Assembly: GCA_963702845.1 (NCBI GenBank)
Contig: OY969763.1
Span: 3,520,001-3,584,000 of the forward strand
DNA from: an uncultured Verrucomicrobiae bacterium
GTDB lineage: Bacteria; Verrucomicrobiota; Verrucomicrobiia; Limisphaerales; Palsa-1400
Length of the DNA stretch: 64,000 nt
Direction: 5' to 3'
In this document: positions 7,574 through 61,719 of the stretch, piece by piece
Layout of the letters: every line of letters starts with the position of its first letter
Position numbering within the stretch: the first letter of the stretch is position 1
Position numbers and translations under genes: made by a program
The notes under the pieces: generated by a model
Seen by the model: the letters and a program-made list of their open reading frames with translations, nothing else
Database searches by the model: none
What the model was told of the DNA's origin: nothing

Positions 7574-7972
7574 AATTAGAAATCAGTTAACCGCGAATTC
7601 TCGGGAGCAGCTCGTATGCCAGTGGAGAAAAAGGCCGGGTAGAAACTCGCCTTGGCGCACGTCACGGAATGTCAATCAAACGACGCAACACATTGATTCA
7701 CAACTAACAGCACCGATGCCCCCCGCTCTCCGTTTATAACTGAGGAATAAACCGGCGGATGTGAGAACGTAGTTCGCGTGTTTGAGTGAGGAATGATTTC
7801 AAAATTTCAAAAGTTATGTTTTGAAACCAAAACTCAATTCGAGCTCTGAGGTGTTGCGAACGTCCACAAAAAAGCACAAAAACGGGGGCTAAAATCACCA
7901 CTTCTAACTGCGCAACCTGTTGCAGCTTTGGACATTGGTCGCGAATTTAACTTGTTTCTAAAAAACTTTTTT

Positions 7973-8010
7973 TAGGTGGCAGTAGGTGACAGTAGGTGAC
8001 CACAGGTGAC
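7973..8010. repeat. 4 x AGGTG(A/G)C direct repeat at exact 10-bp period
   Basis: taggtggc agtaggtgac agtaggtgac cacaggtgac. Confidence 0.9.
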
Positions 8011-8065
8011 TTTTTGGGCGGTTCCATCAAATCGCCAATCATCCACGAAAAAAGATCGCGGGAAT

Positions 8066-8135
8066 GTTGCTACTAGTTGCTACAACCAGCTACTTGTCAC
8101 AACAGGTAGCAACTTTTCGGTATCGAAAGTTGCTA
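8066..8135. repeat. GTTGCTAC repeats (10-bp period) plus inverted copy / hairpin
   Basis: gttgctac 8066 and 8076, ccagctac 8086, gtagcaac 8106; tagcaacttttcg-gtat-cgaaagttgcta imperfect palindrome 8107-8135. Confidence 0.8.
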
Positions 8136-8647
8136 TTTGCGAGCTGTCGATTTTTGATCACCCTTAGTGCCCCGCCTCCCCTACTCGGCGGTTACGGATT
8201 ATTTCAAAGAGCAAGCGCCGCTTTGCACAAGCCAGACGCACCAGGGATAACCCCAGCGAGGAGAGTAATACTAAGTGTCGCAACTACTTGTCAATCATTG
8301 AAGCGTTGATCAAAGCCAAGACACAAGGGCGGAGGAGGCGCAAAAACTGGAACGCGTTGTCCATTAATTAGACGTGAAATCTCGAACTTACTAAACTGTT
8401 CCTAATTGTGTGAGTTGACTTACTTTTTGAATAAGAGATCCAAATCAATTAGCTGACAGTGAAATAGAATTGATGCCCGAATCCTTTCCAAGCTCGAGTC
8501 CCCGAATCCATTCCCAAGCCCCATCGGAGCGCCATATTTATAGAAACAGCCCACCGTCAAATCACGCAAACTTCGACCTTCTATGTTCCACCGTTTGTGT
8601 CATGTTGACCTTAGCGAAGTGCCCTTCGCCAAGATCAGGAGCCGACT

Positions 8648-10036
8648 ATGTTCGAAAAACGCTTTTTCATACCCGGCCTCGCCCATGCTTCATATCTTTT
8701 TGGTGCCGATGGCCAAGCCGCCGTCGTCGATCCGAAACGCGATGTCGATGATTACATCGAAACCGCCCAACGAAACGGGCTCAAGATCGTCGCGATCTTC
8801 AATTCTCATCCGCACGCCGATTTCGCATCCGGCTTCATTGAACTGGCGCAGCGCACAGGCGCGAAGATTTACACCTCGCACCTTGCGCCGGCCACTTACC
8901 AGCGCGTCGCCGCCAAACATGGCGACCGCGTTCGCGTTGGCGGTCTCGAGGTCGAAATCCGGGAGACTCCCGGACACTCGCCAGACAGTCTCAGCTTCGT
9001 CGTGCATGAAAATGGCAAACCAATCGCCATTTACACCGGCGACTTGCTCTTTGTCGGTGACGTTGGCCGGCCCGACTTGCGCGATGCGGATGAAGATCCT
9101 TCCGCATTGGCCGCGAAACTTTACGATTCTCTCTTCAACGGAGTCTTCACTTTGCCGGACGACGTTCGTGTCTATCCCGCGCACGGCGCTGGCTCGCTCT
9201 GCGGACGCGCCATTTCGGACAGCCCGTTTTCGCTCATCGGTCAGGAACGCAAATTCAACTGGGCCGCCCAACTCAAGGACCAGAAAGAATTTGTCCGCCA
9301 GATGATCAGCAATCTGCCCGATCGTCCGGCCTATTTCAGTTACGACGTCGACATCAATCTGCGCGGCGCGACCCCTTTCAGCCAGCTTCCGGCCATCGCG
9401 CCGATCACTGAAACCGACCTGCAAACTGCAGCGGCCGAGGGCGCCGTGGTCATCGACACCCGACCGCCGCAAATGTTCGGCTCGGGACACTTCCCCGGCA
9501 GCCTTAACATCGGCCTCACCAGCGCCATGTTCGCCACCTGGGCCGGTTTCATGGTCCCGGGCGACAAACCCATCGCGCTCGTGGTCGGTTCGGCCGACGC
9601 GTTGCCCAAGGCGCGCCTGGAACTCGCGCGCATCGGGTTCGACAATATCATCGGCTACATCGAAGCCGACAATCTCACCAAAACCCGTCAGACCTCCCAA
9701 CTCAGCGTCAACGATCTCAAATCCGACCTCACCGTTGGCACCGCTCCGCTTGTCCTCGATGTCCGCACGCCGGGTGAATGGGCGTCCGACCACATCGAAG
9801 ACGCGCGGCACATTCCCCTGCCCCAACTCCGAAAAAAACTTAACACGCTCACCAAGACCCAGCGCATCGCCGTCATCTGCGGGAGCGGCTATCGCAGTTC
9901 TATCGCCACCAGCCTGCTCGCACGTGAACGTTTCGACCACGTTCAAAACGTGATGGGCGGGATGTCCGCCTATTCCGAAATCAAAACGCCCGAAATGCAT
10001 CCGGCCGATCTTGTTTTTCTAAGCGAAGGCATTTGA
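8648..10036 (+). CDS. MBL-fold metallo-hydrolase fused to two rhodanese domains (persulfide dioxygenase/sulfurtransferase-like)
   Basis: SHPHADF, TPGHSPD, YTGDLLFVGDVGRPDL, YPAHGAGSLCG; rhodanese LDVR...EW...HI and ICGSGYRS. Confidence 0.9.
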   Translation: MFEKRFFIPGLAHASYLFGADGQAAVVDPKRDVDDYIETAQRNGLKIVAIFNSHPHADFASGFIELAQRTGAKIYTSHLAPATYQRVAAKHGDRVRVGGLEVEIRETPGHSPDSLSFVVHENGKPIAIYTGDLLFVGDVGRPDLRDADEDPSALAAKLYDSLFNGVFTLPDDVRVYPAHGAGSLCGRAISDSPFSLIGQERKFNWAAQLKDQKEFVRQMISNLPDRPAYFSYDVDINLRGATPFSQLPAIAPITETDLQTAAAEGAVVIDTRPPQMFGSGHFPGSLNIGLTSAMFATWAGFMVPGDKPIALVVGSADALPKARLELARIGFDNIIGYIEADNLTKTRQTSQLSVNDLKSDLTVGTAPLVLDVRTPGEWASDHIEDARHIPLPQLRKKLNTLTKTQRIAVICGSGYRSSIATSLLARERFDHVQNVMGGMSAYSEIKTPEMHPADLVFLSEGI

Positions 10037-10097
10037 GCAACGGGCGCGAGGCGCGGCGCCAAATGCAGGGCCCCCCACCCTTCCAGGGGGTTCGAAC

Positions 10098-10188
10098 CGT
10101 TACATCGTTACAACCCTTGTAAACATTGGGGATTTTTGCATTTTACCCGTTACAAAAGGCGTTACAGACCCTCTGCGGAGGCGTTACA
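10098..10188. repeat. 5 x CGTTACA direct repeats
   Basis: Copies at 10098, 10106, 10148, 10160 and 10182; spacer cccttgtaaacattgggg lies between copies 2 and 3. Confidence 0.9.
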
Positions 10189-10202
10189 AGCCATCTCACA
10201 CC

Positions 10203-10757
10203 TCACCACGCCCGCGACAACCGCAATCCCCAATACGTGCTCGAGACCTCCGGCTCGATTTTCCAACCCTTATACGGTCGCGTGAAAATGTAACTGCTGA
10301 CAATCCCAATTCCCGCCCCCGCAACCACATCCTTCGGCCAATGATTATGAGACTCCACGCGGCTGTAGGCGACCCACGATGCCGCCGCATAACTCGGAAC
10401 TCCATACCACCATCCGTAACGCTTGCGCATGAATTCCGCCGCCATGAATGAAATCGACGTATGCCCCGAAGGCATCGAGTAATTGCCGCCGTTAGGCCGG
10501 GTCTCGTTCAAACCATATTTCAAGCCGTAGGTCACACCCTGGGACAGGAGGATCGATTCGCCGAGCTGGATCGCGCCCGGTTTATCTTTGTAAGCCAGCG
10601 TCAGCGTGGCTGCTGTCGCGGGCAGAACAAATTGCAAAATATCCCCCGAAGTCGCAATCGCACTACTCGCAACTGCTTGCGCAGTCACGACGGTGAGAAA
10701 CATCAGGACGAGAGGGTACACGGAAATCCGCGCGAGGGGGCGGCGGCTGGTTGTCAT
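10203..10757 (-). CDS. PAP2-family phosphatase
   Basis: K...RP, SMPSGH and SRVESHNHWPKDV motifs; signal-peptide-like N-terminus. Confidence 0.88.
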   Translation of the reverse strand: MTTSRRPLARISVYPLVLMFLTVVTAQAVASSAIATSGDILQFVLPATAATLTLAYKDKPGAIQLGESILLSQGVTYGLKYGLNETRPNGGNYSMPSGHTSISFMAAEFMRKRYGWWYGVPSYAAASWVAYSRVESHNHWPKDVVAGAGIGIVSSYIFTRPYKGWKIEPEVSSTYWGLRLSRAW

Positions 10758-10920
10758 TCCACAATGATGCTTTCAATCCAAAGCGGCCGACGAAAGATTT
10801 ATTACACCGCAGATGAAATAATTAGTTGGACTCAGAAAATGTGCAGATTGACAGCGAAGCGTTGCGTGCGAGTGCCAGCACGATTTTTTAGTGTACAGGC
10901 AAAAAGGCAAACGATGCGCA

Positions 10921-10964
10921 AAAACTTTACCGTTTCTTTACCGTCTCTTTACCGAATTTGACCG
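10921..10964. repeat. TT(T/G)ACCG repeats at 10-11-bp period; dispersed second copy at 59333-59367
   Basis: aaaactttaccgtttctttaccgtctctttaccga vs aaaacttgaccgtttctttaccgtttcttgaccga. Confidence 0.9.
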
Positions 10965-11200
10965 GTAAGGGGTTTCGCGCGACGGGCGTGAAGGAGCCGA
11001 AGCATTTCATCGATCGCGAATTGCGAATTGCGGATTGGTCATAAAGGGACAAAGGTTCCGACCGGCGACGGCCGAAATGATGCAAAAATGATGCAGAAAC
11101 GATGCAATTTTCTTCGAGGCCGGTCTTCATTGTGATTCGCGTTTTTGACATGCCTAGGCCAGAGAGGGGGGGTAGGCCTACCCCCATCCCCCCTCTGGAC

Positions 11201-11281
11201 CCGTCAGGCCGTCAGGAATGTTGATGGTCAAAGGGTTGAGAGGTAAGTTAGCCGTCAGGCTGACGGCAGGCACCCGTCAGG
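11201..11281. repeat. 4 x CCGTCAGG plus one inverted CTGACGG
   Basis: Copies at 11201, 11209, 11252 and 11274, inverted at 11260; spacer ttgatggtcaaagggttg. Confidence 0.9.
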
Positions 11282-11305
11282 GCTGCAGTTTTTCGAGCGG
11301 GACAT

Positions 11306-11376
11306 GTGACCAAAAGGTGACCAAAAGGTGACCAAAAGGTGACCAAAAGGTGACCAAAGGTGACCAAAGGTGACCA
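11306..11376. repeat. 7 x GTGACCA(AA)(A)G tandem repeat (10-11-bp period)
   Basis: GTGACC at 11306, 11317, 11328, 11339, 11350, 11360 and 11370. Confidence 0.95.
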
Positions 11377-11411
11377 GATGACGGATGACGGATGTCCGGG
11401 CCGCGTTCGCA

Positions 11412-12380: not shown

Positions 12381-12442
12381 CCCGCAGATGACACGCAAAG
12401 CGCCGGCCTCCGTCAAGCGAGAGTTCGAAAAGAATCACGATT

Positions 12443-12494
12443 ATGACTTATCGTCCATAGATTTTCAGCCGCGTTTCCATGGACTATAAGTCAT
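12443..12494. promoter_or_regulatory. C-box-like double operator upstream of the controller gene
   Basis: atgacttatcgtccat (12443-12458) and atggactataagtcat (12479-12494) form an inverted pair with 1 mismatch, each GACT-N3-(A/C)GTC; the second overlaps the ATG. Confidence 0.75.
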
Positions 12495-12720
12495 GGCGAA
12501 ACGCAACCAAATCCTCACCGCCTTCGGCTCCAATGTCCGGAAGAAGCGAGAGGCTCTAGATTTTACTCAAGAACGCCTGGCCGAAAAAGCCAACCTTGAT
12601 CAGACCTACATATCGGGCATTGAACGCGGCATTCGCAATCCAAGTGTTCTCAGCATCGTCCGTTTGGCAGTGGCGTTGGGGACGACAGTTTCAGACCTCA
12701 GCAAAGGGATTGAAAAGTGA
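12493..12720 (+). CDS. XRE-family HTH regulator, probable R-M controller (C) protein
   Basis: FGSNVRKKR...TQERLAEKANLDQTYISGIERGIRNPS; C-box upstream; overlaps the MTase start. Confidence 0.85.
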   Translation: MAKRNQILTAFGSNVRKKREALDFTQERLAEKANLDQTYISGIERGIRNPSVLSIVRLAVALGTTVSDLSKGIEK

Positions 12721-13886
12721 GGTCTCGTTCCGAAAAATCTGCAGGTAGCGCTAGCAAAGTTCAGCATTTGCGAGAAGACATCGTTCCGTATCGCATCAAT
12801 GGCGAAACTCATCAGCAGCCTCTCAAATTTATCGACCTTTTTTGTGGTATTGGTGGGTTTCGTATCGCATTTGAAAAAACAGGTTGCGAATGCGTTTTTT
12901 CTTCAGATTGGGATAAGCATTCGCAAGTCACCTACGAGGCAAACTTCGGCGAGAAACCCCACGGGGATATTCATTCCGTAGCAATCGCCGATATTCCGAA
13001 ACACGACATCCTATGTGGCGGATTTCCCTGCCAACCATTTAGTCTCGCTGGTGTTTCCAAGAAAAACAGTCTCGGCCGCAAACATGGCTTCGCCGATGAG
13101 AAACAAGGCAATCTTTTTTTCACAATCGCCGATATTTTGGAATACCATCGGCCGTCTGCATTCGTTTTGGAAAATGTTAAGCATCTCGTAAGGCACGATC
13201 AAGGTCGCACGTTCAAAATCATATATGACACACTCACCGATGCCCTCGGTTACCAAGTGTACTGGCGGATCATCAACGCTCAATGCGTCGTACCACAGCA
13301 ACGACAGCGCATCTTTCTTGTCGGTTTCAAGCCAGGGCGTGCTTTCGAGTTCCCGGAGTTTCCAGTCGAAGGACCGAAGCTATCGACGATACTTGACGAG
13401 CAAGTGCCGGACAAATATACCCTGACAGATCACCTTTGGAATTACCTTCAGAACTACGCAAAAAAACATCAAGCGGCGGGAAATGGATTTGGTTTCGGAC
13501 TTTTCACAGGCAATGATGTAGCCAGAACGCTCAGCGCTCGTTACCACAAGGACGGTTCGGAAGTGCTTATTTCACAGGGACCGCGAAAAAATCCGAGAAG
13601 GTTAACTCCTCGGGAGTGCGCACGGCTCATGGGTTACCCAAACAATTTCAAAATACCAGTATCTGATACCCAGGCATATCGACAATTCGGAAATTCTGTT
13701 GTAGTTCCGGTCGTTGAGCGCATCGCAAGAAGTGTGGTAGAGACCTTAAGAAGGCCAGTTGACTATCGCCCAGATTTGACCCTTGAAGATAAGAAGCGTT
13801 TGCAAATCCAAGCCGCCACTCCTGCGCTTGAGCCCATCCGTTATGTGATTAAGAAAAAACGTTCCCGAAAAGCGGCTTCCAAATAA
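12717..13886 (+). CDS. dcm: DNA (cytosine-5) methyltransferase, Dcm/M.EcoRII-like
   Basis: FIDLFCGIGG, GFPCQPFS, ENV, QQRQRIF, TLSARYHKDGSE, PRRLTPRECARLMG, SDTQAYRQFGNSV. Confidence 0.92.
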   Translation: MRSRSEKSAGSASKVQHLREDIVPYRINGETHQQPLKFIDLFCGIGGFRIAFEKTGCECVFSSDWDKHSQVTYEANFGEKPHGDIHSVAIADIPKHDILCGGFPCQPFSLAGVSKKNSLGRKHGFADEKQGNLFFTIADILEYHRPSAFVLENVKHLVRHDQGRTFKIIYDTLTDALGYQVYWRIINAQCVVPQQRQRIFLVGFKPGRAFEFPEFPVEGPKLSTILDEQVPDKYTLTDHLWNYLQNYAKKHQAAGNGFGFGLFTGNDVARTLSARYHKDGSEVLISQGPRKNPRRLTPRECARLMGYPNNFKIPVSDTQAYRQFGNSVVVPVVERIARSVVETLRRPVDYRPDLTLEDKKRLQIQAATPALEPIRYVIKKKRSRKAASK

Positions 13887-13896
13887 ATCGCTCCCA

Positions 13897-15111
13897 ATGG
13901 CCACACTTTTCGAATACGCGATAGCTGTGGCGGCAAAAGCCGGTAGAACAATCGTTTCCGGTCAAGTTTTCGCGAAGGTCCTAACTCGGAATGACGATGC
14001 CGGTCGGCACGGCGTATTGATCCCAAGCGAGGCCTACACGTTTTTTCCGAATCTTCCGATTCCAGATCCAACGCAAAACGCGACTGAAACATTCGAGGTA
14101 TTTGATGCGCTTTCGGCGACTCGGCGGAAGGTGGCGTTCAAATATTATCAGCGCTATCCCGAACGGAGAATAACCTGCGTTCACCCGATCCTAAATGATC
14201 TAGACAGCGGTAAGCGGCTGTTTATCGCGCTTCAGCTCAAACATTCAGACGGAACTACGAATTATTACTTCGACTATGCAAATTCCGCACTGGGTGGACG
14301 ATTTAACGAACTTTTCCGTCTCATTTTCGGTGAGCAAGTAGCGGATGTTCCAGCCAACTTTGTAATTAGGCCCGTTGATGTGGCCGCTTTTGCCACCGAT
14401 GAATCGTTAGCCGAGTTGTTGCGCAAGTTTGACGAGGTCAAGAGTTCAGGGTGGATCGATGCTATGCGTTTGGGCGACACGGGAATCGGCTATACATTTG
14501 AAACGCTCTTAGGGATCAAGGAAAATAATGACGAGTTTGGCGATTTTCGTGGGATCGAACTCAAATGCCAAAAAATCAAAGAAGGACGAACAACAGGCAC
14601 AGGAAAAATTAATCTTTTCCAAGAAGGACCAGTTTGGCTATCGAAAACAAGCGCCCGAGATCGCATTCGAATTCTAGGTCAAAAACGAGTCGATGGGTTA
14701 TACGCGTGTCATTCGCAGCTTTCCACAACTGCAAATAACCTGGGTTTACTTTTGGACGTTATTCGCTCTCAAAGCAAAATTGATTTGCGTAAGCATGCTG
14801 ATCCAGTCGGTTACTGGACATTTAAACAGCTGGAGCAACGACTAATAGAAAAGCATTCTCGCGCGGCTTTCGTGAAAGCAAAGACCCGCAGTATTCGGGG
14901 CACAACGCAATACGCGTATGACGAATTGGTCTATTGTGATAGGCCGAGCATTCAAAAGTTTATTGACCTAATTGACAGGCGAAACATCGTCTTCGAATTT
15001 ATTATGTCCGAACGCTCGAATGGCGAAATCCGGAACCATGGTTATCCGTGGCGACTAATACGTGCAGAGTTTCTGGACAACCTGTTCGCCTTTCGCATCA
15101 AACTTCGCTGA
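13897..15111 (+). CDS. Restriction endonuclease, MvaI/BcnI family with extra N-terminal domain
   Basis: C-terminal GDTGIGYTFETLLGIKENND...DFRGIELK...RNHGYPWR; N-terminal KVLTRND...HGVLIP resembles the EcoRII N-terminal domain; follows the MTase. Confidence 0.75.
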   Translation: MATLFEYAIAVAAKAGRTIVSGQVFAKVLTRNDDAGRHGVLIPSEAYTFFPNLPIPDPTQNATETFEVFDALSATRRKVAFKYYQRYPERRITCVHPILNDLDSGKRLFIALQLKHSDGTTNYYFDYANSALGGRFNELFRLIFGEQVADVPANFVIRPVDVAAFATDESLAELLRKFDEVKSSGWIDAMRLGDTGIGYTFETLLGIKENNDEFGDFRGIELKCQKIKEGRTTGTGKINLFQEGPVWLSKTSARDRIRILGQKRVDGLYACHSQLSTTANNLGLLLDVIRSQSKIDLRKHADPVGYWTFKQLEQRLIEKHSRAAFVKAKTRSIRGTTQYAYDELVYCDRPSIQKFIDLIDRRNIVFEFIMSERSNGEIRNHGYPWRLIRAEFLDNLFAFRIKLR

Positions 15112-15585
15112 TTACGAAAAGTTTTTTGGAAATCGCAAGCAGCGCTTTGCCCATCCGTTTAAGTTAGCTGTATTGACGCGACACTCCCAAATCACAACTG
15201 AACGCCACCCGAGCTTCCGCATCGCACGTTGATGAATCTTGTCGCGTGCGGCATTCCCATTCAGTTTCGCCAGCCAGAATTTTCTGCGGTTCGTCGGTGT
15301 CGTGCAGTTTTTGCAACCTTTATGCCGATGCCAGAAGCAGCCGTGAACGAAGATGGCGGTTTTGTATTTGGGTAGAATGATGTCGGGGCGGACGTAAATT
15401 GTCTTTGGTTGAGAGTTGAGTGTTGAGGGGGGAATCGCAATGCGGACGTGGAGGCGGAAGCGGTAGCCCATTTTGTGCAGGAGGCTGCGCACGATTTTTT
15501 CGGGCGTGGTGTCCTTTCCCTTAATCCGGCTCATGTTCCATGAGCGTCGCGCTTTGGTGAGACGATCTTTAGATACGGGTTTCAC
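15112..15585 (-). CDS. vsr: Very short patch repair endonuclease Vsr
   Basis: RSWNMSRIKGKDTTPE, PDIILPKY, FVHGCFWHRH, FWLAKLNGNAARD, VIWEC. Confidence 0.93.
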   Translation of the reverse strand: MKPVSKDRLTKARRSWNMSRIKGKDTTPEKIVRSLLHKMGYRFRLHVRIAIPPSTLNSQPKTIYVRPDIILPKYKTAIFVHGCFWHRHKGCKNCTTPTNRRKFWLAKLNGNAARDKIHQRAMRKLGWRSVVIWECRVNTANLNGWAKRCLRFPKNFS

Positions 15586-16394: not shown

Positions 16395-16402
16395 CGGGAC
16401 GC

Positions 16403-20171: not shown

Positions 20172-20322
20172 TAACTCTAAAAATAGCCACAAAAAGGCAC
20201 AGAAGGCACAAAATTAGAAAATGCGGACGGCATAACGCAAGAGCGGACGACGGGAGATTTGAACAAATTATTTTGTTGTTCGCTGCCGCGAACCGTGCGA
20301 ATCGTCCCTACCATGGATGGTA

Positions 20323-29507: not shown

Positions 29508-29837
29508 ATTTTGAGGAATCCACGTTACGCAGAAAGGGTCGGGCATGTCACGGACGGAACCGCGTTGCGGTTCGGGAACGGTTTGTTTGAAGAGTCGACG
29601 CGCTCCGTCCGGTGCGAGCAGGTCGTTTTGGACCAACAGGCTGTATCGGCGTTGCGCGGTAGCTGGATCAACCGTTTTTGTTCATTTTTCTAATGGGACG
29701 ACGTGGAAGTCTTCCCTGCCGTCGCATTTTTAATTTTCATGGAGGCAGTGTAGCACCGTCACTTGGACAAAGGCTGTCCAAGTGAAAACTTTCCTGAAAT
29801 TAATCTGCAGCCAGTGATGTGGCTGGAGTGGAGTTAC

Positions 29838-31972: not shown

Positions 31973-35800
<3,828 letters not shown>

Positions 35801-42220: not shown

Positions 42221-42868
42221 ATGGCCCTCATCAATCAAGCTACAAAGGAACTGCAGCTCAAGATCGTTTACTACGGTCCCGGCAAGGGCGGCAAAACGAC
42301 GAACCTCGAACAGGTTCACGCCAACGTGCAAAACGTGCAGGATAAAGGAAAGCTGGTCTCGCTCGCCACGAGCTCGGACCGCACGCTCTTCTTTGACTTC
42401 CTGCCCATCCAGGCGGTGGCGATCAAAGGTTTTAAGACCAAGTTCCAGCTCTACACCGTGCCCGGCCAGGTCATTTATAACACCACGCGCCAGCTCGTGT
42501 TGCGCGGAGTCGATGGCGTCATTTTCGTCGCCGATTCGCAATACGACAAAATGGCGGAGAACGTCGAAAGTTTTCAAAACCTTCAGGACAACCTGAGGAC
42601 CTTGAAAATGAATTTCGGCGATATCCCCTACGTGCTGCAGTACAACAAGCGAGACCTCGCTAATGTCGCGCCTGTCGAATACATGGAATATCTGCTTAAC
42701 AACCGCGAAGTTCAGGTGCCTGCTTTCGAGGCCGTGGCGTCGCGTTGTGAAGGCGTTTTTGAGTCACTCAACATGATCACGCGCATGTTGTTGAATAAAT
42801 ACATTAACCAAAGTCCGGCGGCCGCGAAAAATGCCGTCGCAACTACTCAGGCCGCTGTGCCTGCATAA
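42221..42868 (+). CDS. mglA: MglA-family small GTPase
   Basis: KIVYYGPGKGGKTTNL, DRTLFFDFLP, YTVPGQV, GVDGVIFVADS, QYNKRD. Confidence 0.93.
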   Translation: MALINQATKELQLKIVYYGPGKGGKTTNLEQVHANVQNVQDKGKLVSLATSSDRTLFFDFLPIQAVAIKGFKTKFQLYTVPGQVIYNTTRQLVLRGVDGVIFVADSQYDKMAENVESFQNLQDNLRTLKMNFGDIPYVLQYNKRDLANVAPVEYMEYLLNNREVQVPAFEAVASRCEGVFESLNMITRMLLNKYINQSPAAAKNAVATTQAAVPA

Positions 42869-42871
42869 TAT

Positions 42872-43355
42872 ATGCTCGGCACTTCCTCAATTGCAGAGTG
42901 AGGACATGCAAGTCATGGACGGTGCACTTGACGAGCTGCTCCGTAAAACCGACGCAACGGCTGCCCTCGTGATCGATCGCGGCGGCCCACTCCTTACCGA
43001 ACGTGGCCAGACGAAGGATTTCGACACCATGACGATGGCGGCATTGGCTGCTGGATCGTTCAGCGCCACCCAGGCTATTGCCGAACGTGTCGGGGAAAGC
43101 GATTTTACCAGCGTTTACCAACAAGGTTCGCGCTCTAGTATTCTGGTTAGCATGATCGATGAGGCGCTGCTGCTGATTCTCGTGTTCCGCGCGGAATTGG
43201 GAGTAGGCATCATGAAATATCATGCGAAACCGGTTATCGATCGCATCGCCATCCAATTGCATATGGCGCGTGAACGTTCACCGTCGGATACCGTTGACCT
43301 GGTTTCGATGAATGCGTTGGATGCGGCGGAGATTTTCAGGAAGATTGGGGTTTAG
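42872..43355 (+). CDS. mglB: MglB-like roadblock/LC7 protein
   Basis: ALVIDRGG...AALAAGSFSATQAIAERVGE..F..VYQQG...LILVF....GIMK; the ATG at 42872 is out of frame by one inserted base (likely MSALPQL...). Confidence 0.8.
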
Positions 43356-43422
43356 TCCCCTGCTCTTTTCACGGCAGGGCAAACGGTCATCGAAAAGTTG
43401 TGCTCGGTCATAACCGACGAAC

Positions 43423-43506
43423 AACAGAGCCGCGCGCGTAAGCAAGCGGTTTTCTACTATCGGCGTCATCCCTGCAAAACCGCTTGCTCACGCGCGCGGC
43501 TCTGTT
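43423..43506. repeat. REP-like inverted repeat, 31-bp arms
   Basis: aacagagccgcgcgcgtaagcaagcggtttt / aaaaccgcttgctcacgcgcgcggctctgtt (1 mismatch). Confidence 0.9.
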
Positions 43507-43577
43507 CCACGGGTAGCGCGCTTGACTTGGCGCTGAATTGCGGGAGCATTCGCCTCGAGGTTCCGTCTAATCGAGGT

Positions 43578-46500
43578 ATGAGTGCATTGCGCCAACGGCT
43601 TTTTGTTTTTCTTCTTTTCCTTGTTACCATTTCCACCATTGCCAGCGAAACGAATTCGCTGACGCCGCGTGCTGACGCGCTTTTTAAGGAGAAGAATTGG
43701 GCTGAAGCACGCACGGCTTATGACGATGCGCGGAAGAACGAAAAGAATTGGAGCACGCCATTGGTGCGGACGGCGGTTGAGGGCGCGGTTGCTTGTTCCA
43801 TTCAATTACAGCAATGGGATGATGCGTTGCAGAGGGCGCAGCAGTTTGTCGCACATACGAAAGGAACTTTTGGGGAAGCGATTGGTGAACGGTTTCTCGG
43901 CGGGTTGTATCTGAGTATTCCACACCACGGCACGAAACAGGGCGGAAAGTTTTTGCGCGGCCAATGGGGCCAAGGTGTGCAGGTGAATTCCTGGCGGAAG
44001 GATCGCAACGAAGCGGTAAAGCACTATGAACGCGCCCGCGATTTGTTGATTGGCTTGGCCAACAAAAATAAGAACGCCGACGCAGAAAGGATTGGCGTGG
44101 ATTTTGATCTCGCGGCCGGTCTGGCACGACATGACGAATATCGCTAAGGCTACTTTGGTTGGGATTGGTGGTGGTCTGATCGCGACGAAGAAGATTCGCA
44201 AGCGGTCGATGAGGCGGATTATGAAGAGCCGCGCTGGGGTCGCTGGGGATGGAATCAAGAGGACCAGAAGCCGCCAACCGGAATACCTTTAGGACCAGAC
44301 GGCAAACCTCAATTCCCGACGACGCCCAAATCTTATGCTACCGATCTCAGTGCCGGCCCCAAGGTGCGTTTCCTACTTGAAGAAATTCAACGGCTCGACA
44401 AATCGGAAGCAAAGGATGACGCGGCAAAGGCGGTGTTCCGGCGTGCCATGATCGATCGAACGCTCTACGGGCCTGAAAGTGCAAGCCAGCCGAATATTCC
44501 TAAGGCGGACAAAGATGACTCAAAACCACTGAAGAAAACCTGGGAACTCAGCGATGATGAAGCGTTGACCATTGTGGGAGGTAAGCTTGGCGTGGTTACG
44601 TTGCCGATGTCGGAGAACACAATTGCTTTATTGCGCCAGATTCAAACGCAATTCCCACGCAGTTCGACTTGTGCCGAATCGCAATATTCGCTGGCGCTCT
44701 ATTACCAATCGCGCCAGCAGTTCCAGGAAGCAGCGCGCGAATACCAACTATTTCTCGAAAAGTATCCGAAACACGAACGCGTCAAAGACGTTCACACCCA
44801 ACTGAAGCGAATCAAAAACTCGGAAATGATCCTCGGCCAAACCGGCGTTTATTTGCCGGACCAAAAACCGAAGTTGTCGTTCACGTATCGCAACGCTGAC
44901 ACGGCCAATTTCAAAGCCCGCCGAATCGATTTGGTTAAATACGTTCGTGATCGAGCGGAACGAAAACCGGAAAACTGGTGGGAATACCGCAATATTTCCT
45001 ACAATTTTTTCCAGGACCAAATATGGACGAATTACCTGCGTGCGACAGTCGCGACGTGGTCGGAATCGATTCATCGAGAATCGGGCAACCGCGCGGCTGA
45101 AGGGAGCACGTTCGCGCCTTTGAGCGAACCCGGTGCATATATCGTCGAAGCGCGTGTGCCCGGAAACAAGCAGCCGACGCGAGCGCTGGTTCTGGTCACC
45201 GACATTGCCATCGTTCAGAAGAATCTTTCCGGAAAGGGACTCGTCTATATTTGCGACGCGCGCACCGGCCAGCCGCTACCGGACAAATCGGTGCGCTTTT
45301 ACGAACATTGGAACACCTACGACCAGGCCAATGGCAAAAATATTTTTCATTGGGACACGAGCACACGCGTCACGGGAACCAACGGCGTCATCGAATATAA
45401 ACGCGGACATACGGACAATAATCCGTCTGTCGATGCGATTGTCATGGGCGAGAGCAATCGCATGGCATTTTCGTTTTTTCAAAATTGGAACGAGAACGGT
45501 TATGACTACGGTAGCCCGGATGGGTCGCGGAATTATGTCGTCACTGACCGGCCGGTTTATCGACCCGGCGACAAAGTGCAATATCGCATTTGGGTCCGAG
45601 ATATGGCCGATCGCGTTTTTAGCGAGCCGCACAAAGGTGAATTGGTCGAAATCGAAATTTACGACCCGAAGAACAACGTTGCGCAAAAGCGCTCGCTGCA
45701 AACCGATGAATTCGGCTGTATCAGCGATAGTTTTCAACTCGGCACCGAACCGCCACTTGGGATGTATCATTTGCGTCTGAACTCTAACTATCCCGATCTG
45801 CACCACAGCGCTGGCGGTTTGTTTCGGGTCGAGGAATACAAGAAGCCGGAATACGAAGTCTCGGTGAAGCCCGGCAAATCAACGGCGCGCCTCGGCGAAA
45901 AAATTAAAGCACGAATTGAAGCGCGCTATTACTACGGCGCACCCGTCGCGAAGGCGAAGGTCAGTTACAAAATTTTCCGGGAAACCTACCAATTCGTCTA
46001 TTACGGGTCGGCGGAATACGATTGGCTCTATGGCAAGGGCTACGGCTATACGCATTATTCCTATCCGTGGTTCCCGTGGTGGCGGCACTGCGGTTTGCTT
46101 TGGGGCGATTCGTGGCTGGACTCGACTCCGAGCTACGTCGGTTATTATCAATGGGCTTACTACAATCGTTACGATGGCGGCACACGCAAAGCGTTGCGCG
46201 ACCTCGTTGCCCAAGGGGAAGCAGAACTTTCGGCGGACGGGTCTTATGAAGTCGAGATCGACACGAGCAAAGCGAAAGCCGAACTCGGCGATCGCGATCA
46301 TCGTTACACGATTGAGGTGGAAGTTCGCGATGCAAGCCGACGGACGATCGAAGGCAGCGGCAGCGTGCTGGTGACGCGCCAGGAGTTTTATGCATTTGTG
46401 GAACGCGACGCCGGTTGGTATCAGGCGAGGAACGAAGCGCTTTTGAACGTGCGCACGTTGACTCCCAATAACGAGCCGGTCGCCACGAAAGGTGAAGTTA

Positions 46501-49500
46501 TCGTTTACCGAATTTCTTACAAGGGCTCGCAACCCGAGGAGACAATAGTGCGGCGCTGGGATGCGGAGACGGATGCAGACGGACGGCTCGCGTTCAAATA
46601 CGCGATCCCGAGCGAAGGCCAGTATCGCATCAGTTATGCGACTCGGGATTCGCAAAACGCAGAAGTCCTCGGGAGCGCGGTGTGCTGGGTTAACGGCCCG
46701 AAATTTGATGGACGCGTCTATCGATTCAACGGTCTGGAAATCGTCGCCGATAAGCGCACTTACAAGATCGGTGACGTTGCGCATCTGCTCATCAACACGG
46801 CTGAAAATAATGCGCGGATATTGTTCAGCGATGATGTGAGCGGCGGCGTGCTTGGCAGCTACAGGTTCATTGATATTCCATCTCACTCGATGGTGATTGA
46901 TATTCCCGTTGAGAAAAAACAAGTGCCGAACTTTTTCGTTGAAGCCACGCTCGTGCGCAATGGCCGGTTGCACAACGAATCACGCGAACTATTCGTGCCT
47001 CCAGTTGAAGGGCTATTGAACGTGCAGGTTACGTCGGACAAGCAGACCTACAAGCCCGGCGAGACGGGCAAAGTCTCGGTTGTTGTGACCGACGCAAACG
47101 GCAAACCAGCGACGGGTCAGGTAACGCTAACTGCTTACGATCGCGCTGTGACCTACATTCAGGACGAGTTCGGCCCGAGTCCGCGCATTTTTTATTACGG
47201 ACAGAAGAGGCAGCATCAGTTGCAAGTCCAGGGGTCGGTTAATGAGACGTTCCAGGCGAGCGGCGGGTTTGATAATCCCGAGCAATCTCTCTACACAACC
47301 CGCATGCCTGAGGGGTGGAATGGAGATTGGGGAGTGGCAATAGATGGATTGTCGCTGACCACGGCGGACAGCTTCGCTGCGGCCGGATTTGGGGACAGAC
47401 GTGGAGGTAGGGGCGGAGGCGCGTCTGGCGGAATATTAAAAAGGGAAAGCTTAGATATGGCAAAAAGCATATCGGGGCTTACGGGTGCAAATCGGGAGAT
47501 GCCGGCGAGCGTAGCCGCCATGCCAGCGCAGCTAAATGGTAAGCTGGGCTTTTTTGATTCGTCAATTGCAGGTGCGCCAACACTCATTGAACCGGAGTTG
47601 CGGGTCAATTTCGCCGACACCGCCCTTTGGCAACCCTCTCTTACTCTCGACGCGCAAGGCCATGCTGAAACGAACATCGTGTTTCCACAATCGCTCACGA
47701 CATGGCGCTTGCATGCATATGCGTTGACGAGTCAGACACAAGTGGGCGATTCCACGAACGAAACTAAAACGGCGAAGAACCTGATCGCGTTGTTGCAGAG
47801 CCCGCGATTTTTTGTCGAGCGCGATGAAGTCGTCCTTTCGGCGAACGTGCACAATTACTTGAAGCAGTCGAAGAAAGTGCGCGCGGAACTAATTGTGCCC
47901 GCCGATTTATTTGCATCGAGCGAAGGATCACGCGGCAACGATGGTAACCTTCATCTGTTCGCGAACGCCAAAGTCTCTGCCGACGGCGAGCATCGCTTCG
48001 ATTGGCCGGTCAAAGTCACGAAAGCCGGTCTCGCACACATCACGGTCAAGGCACTGACCGACGAGGAAAGCGACGGGATGCGCATGACCTTCCCCGTTCT
48101 CGTTCACGGCGTGATGAAAACGGTCGCGCAGAGCGGAAGTTATCGCGTTTCGCAGGATGGCACGCGGACGCTTAATATCGAGGTTCCCAAGGAAATCGAT
48201 TCGGAGCAAACACAACTGGAAGTGACACTTTCGCCAAGTCTCGGTGGAGTTATGATTGATGCCCTGCCCTACCTTGCCGGTTATCCATACGGTTGCGTCG
48301 AACAAACGATGAGCCGCTTTTATCCGAGCGTCCTCGTCAAAGACACGCTCAAGCGCATGGGCACGGACCTCGAAGCGATCGCGAAACAACACAAGCAGAT
48401 GAATCCAGGTGATGTGACCAACCGGTTCGGTCGTTGGAACTCGCCGGTGTTCGATTCGGCGGAACTTGATCGCATGGTGAAATCGGGTCTCGAGCGCATT
48501 TACAATTTTCAACGCAGCGATGGTGGCTGGGGTTGGTGGAGTGAGGACGACTCTTCGCCGTTTCAAACGTCGTATGTGCTGCAAGGTTTGCACGCCGCCA
48601 TCGAGGCTGGCGTCGACGTCGATCGCGGCGTTTACGAGCGCGGGTTCCAGTTCCTGCAGGCAAACATCGACGCGGAACTCAGAAAGCCGAAGGACAAACA
48701 AAATCTCGGTGACGTGACGACGCAGGCCGGCGTCGCCTACACGCTTTCACTCGAACACAACATTCAAAGTGACGAGCAAAAGAAATGGCTGACCGGTTTA
48801 TACACGAATCGCGCCGAGTTGAATAATTACGGCCGCGCGATGCTCGCGTTAACGATGAAAAACGAAACGCGCATGGACGAAGCCCACATGCTCTTGCGCA
48901 ACCTGCTTCAGTTCGTCGATCGCGACGACAGCAACGAAACCGCTTGGGTCCGCACATCGCAGACTGGCTGGTGGTTCTGGTGGAACAACGATATCGAAGC
49001 AAACGCCTGGGCCCTGAAGGCCTTAGTCGCCCTCGAACCGCAAAACGATCTCGCACCGCGTCTCGTGAAATGGCTCCTGAACAATCGCCGCAACGGTTAT
49101 TATTGGCGCAGCACTCGCGACACTGCCCTCGTCATTTCCGCAATGGTTGATTACATGCGCGCCAGCGGCGAAGCTGCGCCGGATTACGATCTCACGCTCG
49201 CACTCGATGGCACGCCCGTCCGTCAAATCAAAATCACGAAGAAAAATTTCTTCACGTTCGACAATCGCTTCACCCTTTCAGGCCTGCACGTGAAGCCCGG
49301 CCCGCACACACTCACGTTCACCAAAATCGGCAAGGGCGCGCTCTACTATTCCGCTTACGTGAGCTATTTCACCATACAGGAAGACGTTCGCGGCGCTGGA
49401 AATGAAATTTTCGTCACCCGCGACTATTTCAAACTGGTGCCACAAACCGAAAAAGTTCAACTCGGCAAATCGTGGTGGGGCGATGACAAAGCCAAAGGCC

Positions 49501-49892
49501 GCACGGAAATCCGCGACGGTTATCAACGCATTCCACTCAAAACCGGCGACACCGTTTCGAGCGGCGATAAGATCGAGGTCGTGCTCCATATCACCGCGAA
49601 GAACACTTATGATTTCCTCGCATTCGAAGACATGAAACCGGCGGGATGCGAACCGGTCGAATTGCGCAGCGGCGGACGTTGGGCCGGCGGATTGTGCGCG
49701 AACCTCGAGTTGCGCGATGAGAAAGTCGTCTTTTTTATCGGCCTGCTCGAACAAGGCGAGCACATCCTGCGCTACAAAATGCGCGCTGAAACACCGGGCC
49801 ATTTCCATGCGTTACCGACGAAAGCGTTCGCAATGTACGTCCCGGAAATCAAAGCGATCTCTGACGAAATGCGTTTGAAAATCAAGGACTGA
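43578..49892 (+). CDS. Bacterial alpha-2-macroglobulin with N-terminal TPR-like region; single in-frame TAA at 44145-44147
   Basis: Signal peptide; TDRPVYRPGD, VEEYKKPEY, RVNFADTALW, thioester YPYGCVEQ, QRSDGGWGWW, WRSTRDTA, ELRDEK. The frame is continuous across the stop. Confidence 0.9.
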
Positions 49893-55952: not shown

Positions 55953-56028
55953 GGGGTCGTAGCTCAGTTGGTAGAGCGTCTCGTTCGCAATGAGAAGGTC
56001 AGGGGTTCGACTCCCCTCGGCTCCACCA
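55953..56028 (+). tRNA. tRNA-Ala(CGC)
   Basis: 76-nt cloverleaf GGGGTCG...CGGCTCCACCA, G3:U70 pair, anticodon loop TT-CGC-AA, TTCGA T-loop, encoded CCA. Confidence 0.97.
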
Positions 56029-56116
56029 TTCTTCGCGCTTTCCTTTTTCGTAATTGCCTCTCGTCCTCCCCCGAATTGACGCCGCCCTCAAATCACACCA
56101 TGCTTCTATGACAGCT

Positions 56117-56674: not shown

Positions 56675-56833
56675 TTTGTAGTAGACGAGGTAACGAGTTT
56701 CTGATCTTACGTCGTGCAAGCGCCGTAGGCGCGCCATGTCTATAGAATAAAATCAGAAACGGCGGAAGCTCCGCTAGGAGCGACACGTCGTTTTCGGCGA
56801 AACCAACACCCCTCGAACTTCGGCTGGAAAGCT

Positions 56834-57724: not shown

Positions 57725-57967
57725 CCATTCAGTATGCGGAAGAAATCCAACCGGTTCAAGCACTCCACGCATGAGAGTATCAACGTCGAAACCATCCGCG
57801 TTCATTGCGTCGTATCAAACTTGCATCGTTTTTCGTCAATCAACGATCCGCCGCAACACAGGTAAAACTTTAATCGTCAGAGTTGGTCACAATTTGTGAC
57901 CACCTGATGGTTTCAATCTTCCAACGAATGAACTGCATCGGCAGTGCAGAGAACGTTCACGTATAAA

Positions 57968-58885: not shown

Positions 58886-58986
58886 AAATTTCTTAAAGTT
58901 ACTGCGACGGCACAGAATTCAGTTCCACGACGGTCAATTTCCCGATGCTGCGACCATCAAAAATACACGTCAAGACCTGTCCTTGC

Positions 58987-59016
58987 TTGACACGATCGAA
59001 TAGCGTGATGTAGTTT
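58987..59016 (+). promoter_or_regulatory. Candidate sigma70 promoter
   Basis: TTGACA at 58987 and tgTAGTTT about 17-18 bp downstream. Confidence 0.45.
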
Positions 59017-59139
59017 CTACACTACAGCAGCAGAAAGCTGCCGTCCACCCTCGCGCCGTGCTTCGCGATGGCCTGCAAACCAAAAGCATTTACCGGAGCG
59101 CCGAACAATGTTTCGGCGTTTTCAGCTTTGAAAGGAACC

Positions 59140-61719
59140 ATGGCCCAGGAACACACCAAGCCAGCTCATCGCCACACCAGAGGTGTGCCCGGCCCAAATT
59201 GGTTCTATCCTGTCCCAATTTGTCCGCAGCAGTTTCCAAACGTACCTACTTGTATCCAATTGCCCGTCATAGGAGAGTTTCGGAGAGTTGCGGGAAGTTG
59301 CGGTTTAAAAACATACCCCCCGGTAGCCACTAAAAACTTGACCGTTTCTTTACCGTTTCTTGACCGATTTTTAAGGTTTCAAAACAGCGCACCCTTGATA
59401 CTCAATACGTTCCGAAAAATGACACGTATCACCAGTCAAGTTTTGCACGGGTTGGACGTTGGACGTTGGATGTTGGAAGTTCGACGTTCGCTTTCATCCG
59501 AACCTAACCGAAGCTATCCGAACCTAACCGAACCTAACGGAACCAAAATTTTCATCCTTTGCGCCTTTTGTGCCTTTTTGTGGCCACTTCTCTGCTCAGC
59601 AATTGAGCCACCCACCATCCCCATCGGTCTCGATGCCTATCGCCAATGGCAACACTGGCCGTGGCAACGCATCGGCGTCCGCGCCTACATGCGCAGCACC
59701 TACGATCGTTCCGGCGGCAATGAAGGCGCTGATGCCAGCCATTTCCTCTACCAACTCGACGACAATCAAAACGTCACCCTCGACGTCGCTGGCTCCGGCA
59801 TTCTTTACTTCGCGCGCTACAACCATTGGCACGGCAGCCCGTGGCATTACACCGTCGACGACACAGACCACATCGTTCAAGAATCCAGCACCGCAGATCC
59901 TCTGCATCCAAAAGAAAATTCTGTGTTCGTGCCAACCAGCGCATTCCCAAACCCACTCGCATGGACCTGGTCCGACACTCGCGGCGCAGATCTAAGCTGG
60001 GTACCCGTCCCGTTCGAAAAAAGTTTCCGCATGGCCTACACCCGCACCCATTACGGAACCGGCTACTACATTTATCACCAATTCGTCCCCGGCATAAAAC
60101 TCTCGCAACCGATCAAATCATGGACCGAATCTGCGCCCGACGCGGACGTTGTGGAACTCCTCAACCCAACCTCCACCCGCTACCGCGCCATCGATGCCAT
60201 CGAAGGGAAAACTTATTACACGAACGCATTCGATGCCCCGCTCCGAATCGAAACCAAAGACCCATCCGCCATCAACACCATCGAATTTACCGTCCCAGTA
60301 AAAGACGCCGTCGAATTCGACCGCTCGACATTGCGCATCACATGGGATGACGCAAAGCAACCCTCCGTCGAAGCCCCCATCGCCCTCTTCTTCGGGGCCG
60401 GCACACTCTACAATCGCGACAACCGCGAATACCTCGTCAACGCCTTCCCCGTTTCCATCCATCAGGATAGAACCGAGATGTTCCTCGCCTGCTTATTCCC
60501 GATGCCATATTTCAAAAGTGCCCAAATCGAAATCATCAACCACGGCCCCAACAAAATCACTCCAGCCATCTGGGTCCATACCGTCCCGCTCACCGATCCA
60601 AAAGAATTCCTCACCTACTTCCACGCGACCTATCGCGACCATGGAACACCCGAACCCGGCAAAGATTTAGTTCTTCTAGACACGAAGCAAACCGAAGGCG
60701 GCGGCGATTGGTCGGGCCATTTCATCGGCACCTCATTTATATTCTCCGACCGCGCCGTCCTCGGCACGCTCGAAGGCGACCCGCGTTTCTTTTTCGACGA
60801 TAGCCAAACCCCACAATGCTACGGCACCGGCACTGAAGAATGGGGCGGCGGCGGCGATTACTGGGGCGGTCGCAACATGACCCTGCCCTTCGCCGGCCAT
60901 CCCACCGGCGCGAAATCCGACAAGGAATCCAAATGTGACGAAGACAAAATCGAATCCGCCTACCGTTTCCTTTTGGCTGACCTAATGCCCTTCGGCAAAA
61001 ACGCCAGGATTCAACTGGAACACGGCGGCGAAAACCAATCCACCGAACACTACCAAACCGTGACTTACTGGTACGGCGTCAATCACCCGACCCTTTTCAA
61101 AACCGACACGCTAAATATCGGCGACATCGAAAGCGAAAAAAACCACAACTACAATTCCCCCGACGCCTGCGCTCCATATCAAATCACCTCGCGCTACGAA
61201 CTAGGCCCCGATCATTTGAAGGACGGCAAAGAAGTCTATCCCACAACCACTGACACCGCTCGCAGAACAAAAACCTTTTCCGCATTCACACTGAAACTCG
61301 ATCCCCAAAACACCGGCGTAATGCTCCGCCGCAAACTCGACTACTCCTATCCAAACCAACGAGCCGAAGTTTTCGTGGCAGATCCTGATCCCTCTCTCGA
61401 TGAATTGAGGTATAGTGTGATGACGATACCTACTCGATGGAAGCCAGCCGGCATCTGGTACACCGCCGGCGGCAACATCTGCGTTTACTCAAACCCAAAA
61501 GACGAACTCGGCTCCGTCCAACACAAACTGGAAACCAGCAACCGCCAATTTCGCGACGACGAATTCCTCCTGCCACTCAACCTAACGAAAGGCCGCTCTG
61601 AAATCCGCGTCCAAGTCAAATTCACCCCCGTCGAAATCCCTTTCTACCCGGGCGGCCCCATCCACGACCTCGCGTGGAGCGAGATCCGTTACGACGCCTA
61701 CTGTTGGCTCGTGCCGTAA
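59140..61719 (+). CDS. DUF2961 (GH172-like) glycoside hydrolase; N-terminal extension built from repeats, true start uncertain (59140, 59419 or 59470)
   Basis: STYDRSGGN, PMPYFKSA, LEGDPRFFFD, GTGTEEWGGGG, QLEHG; aaagga RBS before ATG 59140. Confidence 0.8.
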   Translation: MAQEHTKPAHRHTRGVPGPNWFYPVPICPQQFPNVPTCIQLPVIGEFRRVAGSCGLKTYPPVATKNLTVSLPFLDRFLRFQNSAPLILNTFRKMTRITSQVLHGLDVGRWMLEVRRSLSSEPNRSYPNLTEPNGTKIFILCAFCAFLWPLLCSAIEPPTIPIGLDAYRQWQHWPWQRIGVRAYMRSTYDRSGGNEGADASHFLYQLDDNQNVTLDVAGSGILYFARYNHWHGSPWHYTVDDTDHIVQESSTADPLHPKENSVFVPTSAFPNPLAWTWSDTRGADLSWVPVPFEKSFRMAYTRTHYGTGYYIYHQFVPGIKLSQPIKSWTESAPDADVVELLNPTSTRYRAIDAIEGKTYYTNAFDAPLRIETKDPSAINTIEFTVPVKDAVEFDRSTLRITWDDAKQPSVEAPIALFFGAGTLYNRDNREYLVNAFPVSIHQDRTEMFLACLFPMPYFKSAQIEIINHGPNKITPAIWVHTVPLTDPKEFLTYFHATYRDHGTPEPGKDLVLLDTKQTEGGGDWSGHFIGTSFIFSDRAVLGTLEGDPRFFFDDSQTPQCYGTGTEEWGGGGDYWGGRNMTLPFAGHPTGAKSDKESKCDEDKIESAYRFLLADLMPFGKNARIQLEHGGENQSTEHYQTVTYWYGVNHPTLFKTDTLNIGDIESEKNHNYNSPDACAPYQITSRYELGPDHLKDGKEVYPTTTDTARRTKTFSAFTLKLDPQNTGVMLRRKLDYSYPNQRAEVFVADPDPSLDELRYSVMTIPTRWKPAGIWYTAGGNICVYSNPKDELGSVQHKLETSNRQFRDDEFLLPLNLTKGRSEIRVQVKFTPVEIPFYPGGPIHDLAWSEIRYDAYCWLVP
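59451..59586. repeat. Three adjacent repeat modules: (GTTGGAN)x5, (CCGAACCTAA)x5, (TTTGTGCC)-type
   Basis: 59451-59489, 59498-59547 and 59558-59586. Confidence 0.9.

Follow-up and report, generated by a model that had tools for sequence, protein, structure and literature searches.

Phased intergenic repeat islands and dispersed terminase-like genes in a verrucomicrobial chromosome

We analyzed a 64,000-nucleotide stretch (the window, C1:3520001-3584000) of the 6.03-Mb single-contig genome of an uncultured Verrucomicrobiae bacterium (Limisphaerales, Palsa-1400; assembly GCA_963702845.1, contig OY969763.1), which is 90% complete by markers and in which four intergenic islands of short direct repeats, numbered 1 to 4 along the window, had been noticed. 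Close protein homologs carry the labels Verrucomicrobiales/Limisphaerales. Coordinates are those of the window unless marked as genome. The repeats are real, phased, mobile units that are positionally tied to terminase-like genes resident on the host chromosome. Judging from sequence, we give about an even chance to the reading that the islands are gene-less stacks of units, in which the arrays of 10- to 11-bp period are putative pac-like docking sites for resident small-terminase (terS) and helix-turn-helix (HTH) proteins, acting through a packaging mechanism. No paper on this repeat/terminase system was found in the open-access literature.

The initial annotation had suggested decoy sites or a family of minimal elements mobilized in trans. 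Its family reading stands in so far as the units are genome-wide, non-autonomous, and tied to phage-type proteins in trans, and its mention of terminase binding was apt, as arrays flank orphan terS and HTH genes, but its integration host factor (IHF) sites and the idea of words copied from phages were not supported.

Phased repeats as dispersed chromosomal units

All nine modules named in the initial annotation are present in the window at the positions and spacings given for them. Taken singly, module words occur at the expected genome frequency (AGGTGAC, 614 against 632 expected; CGTTACA, 536 against 571). Closely spaced word pairs are, genome-wide, almost exclusively 8, 10, 11, 12, 20, or 22 bp apart. 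A lag scan of the non-coding DNA of the whole genome gave 177 events at lag 10 versus 2 to 4 in block (local) shuffles and 45 at lag 11 versus 3 to 4, with lags 7 (163 events) and 8 (35 events) also enriched. The repeats are real and far beyond chance.

Tandem Repeats Finder (TRF) located 270 arrays of period 10 or 11 with at least 2.4 copies, which form 172 islands spread evenly round the chromosome. BLAST of each island against the genome resolved it into a mosaic of 40- to 120-bp units, each unit with dispersed copies particular to it, and the units of the window islands recur as dispersed families beyond the window. Sequence clustering, which replaced an earlier clustering by cyclic identity of words that had merged everything into one group, divided 389 arrays (TRF plus looser non-coding arrays) into 32 families with at least three members (266 arrays), leaving 97 singletons. 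Unit order varies (F17-F6 and F6-F17 are both found), and no constant separator lies between units.

Three classes of repeat make up the window islands (Table 1). Class A consists of period-10/11 arrays with an A-tract tail, from families F11, F6, F9 (twice), F20, F2, F24, and F18. Class B consists of 85- to 120-bp units in which a G/C box is followed by two words at 8-bp spacing, an A/T-rich spacer, and two to three further words; its members, the CGTTACA unit of island 2 and the CCGTCAGG unit, form a second class, origin-like and moving together with the arrays. The 7-mers and 8- to 9-mers of class C belong to another system than the period-10/11 arrays. Inverted 7-mer arrays flank one of two four-helix-bundle genes examined (three in the genome). 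A GxxExxY gene was considered as the source of the 8- to 9-mers and rejected: PF13366 was not found in the genome, and a literature search gave no relevant result.

The island-2 unit has six further full-length copies in its own genome, at least 11 in the relative G002, and six in the relative G001; in 13 copies aligned by eye the ends are sharp, and no target duplication is visible. The sharing of modules between distant islands holds for the TTTACCG unit (10920-10959 versus 59332-59371, 90% over 40 bp), but at 8.0 and 11.3 kb GTGAC is no more than a shared word, the two arrays belonging to different families (F11 and F2). The CCACAAAAA-GCACA motif does have exactly three copies genome-wide, all in the window, but it is a repeat of the 8- to 9-bp-period type. 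Turnover is evident at orthologous loci: the G001 orthologs of the island-1 and PAP2 neighbors lack islands, and the DUF2961 ortholog of G002 carries a different period-10 unit. In a set of 41 genomes, three module patterns did not extend beyond this genome or genus, other matches being at control level.

Islands 1 and 4 open with a motif that we take to be boxA-like, and islands 2 and 3 have no such leader. Genome-wide, an array lies downstream of 45 of 172 boxA-like sites; for the strict motif, arrays lie downstream at 34 of 120 sites and upstream at 3, against a background of 5%. After boxA-like motifs, module families keep a single orientation in 73 of 74 cases (13 of 13 for F6). A promoter pattern occurs upstream of 20 of the 45 array-bearing boxA-like sites versus 3 of the 127 others; the two promoter-like sites of the window (islands 1 and 4) fail this genome pattern and were not listed by the consensus scan. 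A head-type promoter cassette, with 28 to 30 copies here, one imperfect copy in G001, and none in G002, lies ahead of a helicase gene, four terS genes, and, in the head cluster described below, the genes for the protease, the adaptor, and a membrane protein; F11 sits after it at three other sites. A GTDB-wide scan for this promoter gave one unrelated hit. Since the cassette is a recent expansion, it is no proof of an old regulon.

Terminase-like genes and the position of arrays

Clustering those open reading frames (ORFs) that are near arrays gave two families, one of Mu-gp27-like small terminases and one of small HTH proteins. The genome has 13 dispersed ORFs of the first family, with the gene order terS-terL; 9 of 11 tested match phrog_426 (terminase small subunit), and 4 of the 11 match PF11985. 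Examples of the gp27-like TerS are encoded at genome 2184504-2185238, 2301953-2302615, and 1875637-1876467. The terS copies are divergent (20-32% identity). Eight large-terminase (terL) loci comprise five unbroken, two frameshifted, and one, in the head cluster, with an in-frame stop; Walker A, Walker B, and three nuclease Asp motifs are retained in the five unbroken dispersed TerL. Housekeeping genes surround the terS and terL loci, of which the pair closest to the window is 20 kb before it, and no integrase or replication genes were found beside the 13 terS in their neighborhoods downstream, in part upstream, or on comparison of integrase positions. The HTH family has seven copies of 123 to 136 amino acids, each an HTH plus a helical hairpin.

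An array lies within 400 bp of 7 of the 13 terS genes and of all seven HTH genes, compared with 103 of 1,960 background ORFs. Four terS stop codons are themselves the first unit of an array, which is followed by an A-tract and, in three cases, by a terL start or remnant. Members of 14 of the 32 array families sit beside terS or HTH genes, and the same is true, elsewhere in the genome, of five of the seven period-10/11 families of the window (F6, F9, F20, F2, and F24). Two F6 members lie approximately 220 bp upstream of terS ORFs, one F24 member is immediately upstream of the start codon of terS 3108497, and F18 is 83% like the array immediately upstream of the start of terS 4753165. The F9 and F20 units of the HTH gene tail also lie downstream of a close HTH homolog in another family, and F20 is found at the HTH stop codon in the genome of another family as well. 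Island 3 reads as such an HTH tail minus its gene.

The terS profile found matches in 23 of 24 family genomes (1 to 12 copies) and in 3 of 16 other families, and, phylum-wide, 6 of 200 genomes have Pfam gp27, each as a single copy. We examined 79 of the 148 matches outside this genome (19 plus 60 from the best-scoring rows) and dropped one that had no local match; an array lies within 400 bp at 48 of the remaining 78 loci. By distance from the terS domain start, the figures for arrays are 22% at -250 to 0, 0% at 0 to 500, and 27% and 19% at 500 to 1000, with no arrays beyond 1250 bp on either side. Array sites at terS are fixed, either just before the start or at the 3' end or terS-terL junction. 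Because the relative genomes are kin, we attach no P value to this proximity.

A single tail-less head cluster at genome 5.24 Mb encodes a protease, an HK97-type capsid, an adaptor, a portal, and TerL. The capsid gene is single-copy, with identities of 89-90% in both congeners and 75-77% in two near genera; of 24 family genomes, 6 gave a match. The cluster is under purifying selection in the genus and two near genera, with dN/dS values of 0.10-0.18 for capsid, portal, and connector/adaptor across the genus; HTH pairs gave 0.10-0.18 and one terS pair 0.28. Related heads occur in full Mu-like prophages of other genomes of the order, and a search with the Mu-like transposase of one of the genomes surveyed (G027) did not find that gene here.

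Several other loci lie close to these subjects. At genome 2301953-2305862, a terS-terL pair is followed by a second portal gene without a capsid. A stand-alone DnaB-N/AAA_25 helicase gene (genome 5225501-5226982), 13 kb from the head cluster and conserved in G001 and G003, carries the head-type promoter and, at its end, a repeat of the CCGGA word; its place recalls the run-off replication near gene transfer agents (GTAs). A second helicase gene (loci L246 and L248), common to G002, is followed by a small HTH-type ORF and resembles the remnant of a satellite. Origin-like units as tails of three stand-alone helicase genes were not seen at the ends read, which carry other words.

A putative packaging mechanism and its alternatives

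Stacks that recur at approximately 170 places, together with arrays that hug the ends of scattered, prophage-free packaging genes, suggest that the arrays are likely docking sites. With the cognate genes located on the chromosome of the host, the islands resemble gene-less kin of the resident terminase cassettes rather than decoys alone. In the proposed mechanism, a TerS ring with HTH heads one helical turn apart would bind a phased array, TerL, chromosomal or incoming, would cut near it, and the DNA downstream would be fed into heads from an infecting Mu-like phage or, in this genus, from the resident tail-less cluster. Proteins at docking sites would steer host DNA into phage heads or jam the heads. 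Packaging could carry a cassette and its neighbors to new cells, and repair of the cuts against any similar unit may shuffle units into new stacks and strip genes, leaving islands. Such reshuffling would fit the copies, because in five HTH cassettes aligned by eye homology stops unit by unit. Precedents are at hand: PMC4737164 describes pac sites whose direct repeats span the promoter and start of terS, and rings with HTH motifs spaced by roughly one turn of B-DNA, and PMC11260489 describes chromosomal pac-like sites that direct packaging.

More doubtful, though possible, is a chromosomal packaging system on the scale of the genome in this Verrucomicrobiota family, with many host terS genes and their arrays and promoter-led stacks throughout, in which any part of the genome could be loaded from programmed starts into borrowed or home-made heads and terminase cuts would spread and reshuffle the sites. 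If true, such a system would make up a class of mobile elements devoid of both transposase and integrase, and a soil and freshwater lineage would encode packaging signals of its own along with the enzymes reading them, which would provide a new route to directed gene transfer or phage defense. Their period constant at one turn and their words varied, the dozens of natural TerS-array pairs offer a test of sequence versus shape selection by small terminases.

A number of observations weigh against docking sites for terminase-like proteins. Six of the 13 terS genes here (two of them with a looser F6 array) have no TRF array within 400 bp, as do 30 of the 78 terS loci in relatives, and 18 of the 32 array families have no gene neighbor. 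For HTH homologs elsewhere in the order, 10-spaced repeats were detected at 2 of 14 loci by a test that found one of two of its own positive controls. Neither protein has a Foldseek match at E<=0.001, no terminase family is among the strong fold matches listed, G20C TerS reached only Z 6.2 with root mean square deviation 7.0, and the likeness of the HTH protein to TerS is weak. In PMC4737164, the SF6 DNA-binding domain was found to be almost non-specific for the repeats. None of eight phage or prophage terS-terL regions (six IMG/VR contigs with a related terL plus two prophages) has a period-10 array of at least 2.4 copies. Three relatives (G011, G016, and G017) have 5 to 12 terS and no PF05065 capsid, and two others (G004 and G014) have one such capsid. 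The terL of the head cluster has an in-frame stop, the tape-measure gene PF10145 was not found in the genome (other tail families were not searched), and the low dN/dS may predate host residence. No transposase or target duplication that would account for spread within the chromosome was found. An RNA role would account equally well for the polarity seen after boxA.

The initial annotation also looked to phage origins, cos, and att sites, and this link fared poorly. Four module patterns gave 0, 1, 1, and 0 exact IMG/VR matches, one of them in coding DNA. The other, a CGTTACA pair between the primase-helicase gene and the terminase operon of an unrelated phage, fits a link to phage origin or terminase sites, but a single match is near a rough chance estimate of 0.3. 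Two stretches tried against INPHARED phages and PLSDB had no match, and a terS search in IMG/VR gave no confirmed locus. The IHF-like spacers were not borne out: sites within one mismatch of WATCAANNNNTTR, which we take to be the IHF consensus, number 34 in array zones versus 51±6 in shuffled sequence (0.64 per kb versus 0.87 per kb in other intergenic DNA), and the four islands hold two one-mismatch sites and no perfect one. The G/C-run boxes are 2- to 3-fold denser near arrays, but they are few (17 runs).

Compared with known systems, the repeats do not match iteron or att sites, satellites, miniature inverted-repeat transposable elements, or CRISPR-like arrays, and they share part of the GTA pattern. 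Iteron or att sites are disfavored by the lack of IHF enrichment, the absence of adjacent Rep, primase, or integrase genes, and the island-2 copies, none of which is at the 10 integrase loci. The units resemble miniature transposable elements in being multicopy, polymorphic in presence, and served in trans, and no terminal inverted repeats or target-site duplications were seen in the 13 island-2 copies and five HTH cassettes aligned by eye. The varying unit order and the lack of a constant repeat separator depart from CRISPR-like arrays. Phage satellites such as the Staphylococcus aureus pathogenicity islands (SaPI)/phage-inducible chromosomal islands (PICIs) and the virion-encapsidated integrative mobile elements (VEIMEs) resemble the present units in having their own small terminase and a cis site and in drawing heads or tails from a helper (PMC9618062). 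Capsid-forming PICIs are comparable. Here, in contrast, no integrase, att site, primase, or regulatory module lies beside terS, integrase and replication genes together with terS were not found, and the units are under 3 kb and scattered. In GTAs such as RcGTA and BaGTA, the head genes are single-copy, conserved by vertical descent, under purifying selection, and set amid housekeeping genes, and the single conserved head cluster here is likewise under purifying selection. The system differs from GTAs in that no tail tape-measure gene was found, terminase copies are many, several relatives have terS and no capsid, and sites are sequence defined, whereas GTAs package randomly.

Pac sites are among the closest likenesses. 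The array families are found at small-terminase genes (gp27-like, PF11985/phrog_426), with gene-less copies in the window, and no matching array was found at the terS of the eight phage or prophage regions. SPP1/SF6 pac (PMC4737164) likewise has direct repeats over the terS promoter and gene, an HTH ring with one-turn spacing, and A/T tracts, but there is one site per phage genome with weak specificity, whereas here there are hundreds of chromosomal arrays with at least 32 words, mostly gene-less and absent from the related phages examined. The P22 pac-like sites of the Salmonella chromosome are also proposed to attract terminase and direct transduction, but PMC11260489 describes nine short motifs read by the phage's own terminase, unlike the long phased arrays and host-encoded terS and terL here.

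Of the competing explanations, an anti-phage decoy or sabotage system is unlikely. Host TerS/TerL variants and chromosomal sites would divert or poison the packaging of Mu-like phages, so that heads take host DNA or stay unfilled, with gene transfer as a by-product. The many divergent terS copies and the genomes with terS but no capsid agree with this, as do a lower P1 yield when the host's chromosome carries extra pac sites (cited in PMC11260489) and the counting of satellite terS among interference genes (PMC9618062). However, the full head cluster is conserved in the genus, and because the array words were not found in the phages examined, the arrays would be poor mimics of phage sites.

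It is rather improbable that the repeats are selfish or neutral mosaics like bacterial interspersed mosaic elements (BIMEs) or cyanobacterial small dispersed repeats, gathered with promoter cassettes, heptamers, and small genes in intergenic hot spots by recombination, with arrays that have no protein partner. Words restricted to a genus or species, a head-type promoter with 28 copies here and scarcely any in G001 and G002, homology that stops unit by unit, and intermixed heptamer and 8- to 9-mer arrays would all be expected. Against this, the period remains 10 to 11 while words vary, position next to terS is sharp across 24 genomes, and polarity is fixed (73 of 74). BIMEs, repetitive extragenic palindromic (REP) mosaics, and heptamer repeats share short intergenic units, mosaic formation, and fast turnover (PMC4679880), but the present repeats are direct and spaced at 10 to 11 bp, not palindromes or 7-mers, and their partners are terminase-like, not RAYT or four-helix-bundle proteins.

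An RNA role appears very unlikely; here, promoter and boxA would give rise to a non-coding transcript subject to antitermination, and its repeats would be bound by a ring-shaped RNA-binding protein or would control the gene downstream. The placing of arrays downstream of boxA-like sites and the promoters upstream of them speak for it, but a period of one turn is of consequence for duplex DNA, the leader is missing from islands 2 and 3, none of the islands has an Rfam match, and whole-cassette copying would also give fixed polarity. That each island is the operator region of the adjacent gene is largely refuted and highly implausible: islands 1 and 4 do point into a downstream gene and the F6 word also occurs within promoter spacers (124 TTGAC sites versus 51 to 81 in offset controls), but the same units precede unrelated genes and, as noted above, are missing or replaced at the orthologous loci of G001 and G002.

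Features of the window and neighboring genes

Table 1. Repeat modules and associated features of the window
Feature	Position	Strand	Remark
1103-aa membrane-anchored coiled-coil protein	4262..7573	-	Matches no Pfam or PHROGs family; in boxA direction, downstream of island 1
CCACAAAAAAGCACA	7864..7878	+	8-9-bp-period type; separate class
F11: GTCACCTACT x4 at 10 bp, then A-tract/T-tract tail	7953..8014	-	8 family members
F6: GTAGCAAC/GTTGCTAC array at 10 bp	8044..8138	-	14 members
boxA-like motif TGCTCTTTGAAAT	8201..8213	-	Heads island 1
Promoter-like site: TTGACA, GTAGTTGC variant of F6 word, imperfect -10 (spacer 15 or 18)	8262..8294	-	Read from sequence
Island 2: G/C box, CGTTACA x2, A/T-rich spacer, CGTTACA x3	10069..10190	+	Sharply bounded, 120 bp
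F9: TTTACCG at 11 bp	10920..10988	+	Unit also occurs after HTH gene
GCGAATT 7-mer array	11016..11037	+	Separate heptamer class
F20: ATGATGCA at 11 bp	11074..11123	+	Begins at HTH stop codon in 5 copies
G/C box and CCGTCAGG unit (F32)	11167..11282	+	Island-2 layout, different word; 6-7 more copies
F2: GTGACCAAAAG x6.6	11306..11376	+	Longer-period variant of GGTCACGTTT array in HTH tail
GATGACG 7-mer array	11377..11394	+	Separate class
Palindrome CACTTGGACA-N5-TGTCCAAGTG	29760..29784	.	Precedes 5 terS genes as a leader; no gene or array at this site
Weak promoter-like site (TTGACA, 18 bp, TAGTTT) and boxA-like CAGCTTTGAAA	58987..59133	+	Heads island 4; read from sequence
F24: GGAGAGTTGC at 10 bp, A-tract, C-run	59271..59321	+	8 members
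F9, second copy: TTTACCG/TTGACCG	59331..59372	+	
GTTGGAC 7-mer array	59451..59488	+	Also at orthologous site in G002
DUF2961 gene	59470..61719	+	Start ATG 59470 inferred
F18: CCGAACCTAA x4.7	59498..59551	+	Inside likely 5' end of DUF2961 gene

As initially reported, no integrase, primase, Rep, or terminase is encoded among the 46 ORFs scanned in the window, the housekeeping priA excepted. The verrucomicrobial LexA box (TGTTC-N4-GAACA) has 11 sites in the genome and none in the window. The 1103-aa protein is a passenger neighbor of island 1, conserved in G001, where no island lies upstream. At the other end, the F18 array and a TTTGTGCC repeat (59470-59600) encode the probable, signal-peptide-like N-terminus of the DUF2961 protein, and the G002 ortholog has other repeats at the matching N-terminal place. 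The palindrome of Table 1 has 28 copies here, 18 in G002, and 17 in G022 and is present in 13 of 24 family genomes. A 70-bp repeat at 20241-20314 has about 15 copies, two of them at terS gene ends.

Methionine synthase domains are spread over several ORFs at 32214-35800, suggesting frameshifts or assembly indels, and errors of this kind could also account for some of the broken terL copies. A C5 methylase, an MvaI/BcnI-type endonuclease, and Vsr form a type II restriction-modification locus at 12717-15585, 1.3 kb from island 3. At 42221-49892, an alpha-2-macroglobulin gene comes after small GTPase, roadblock, and TPR genes.

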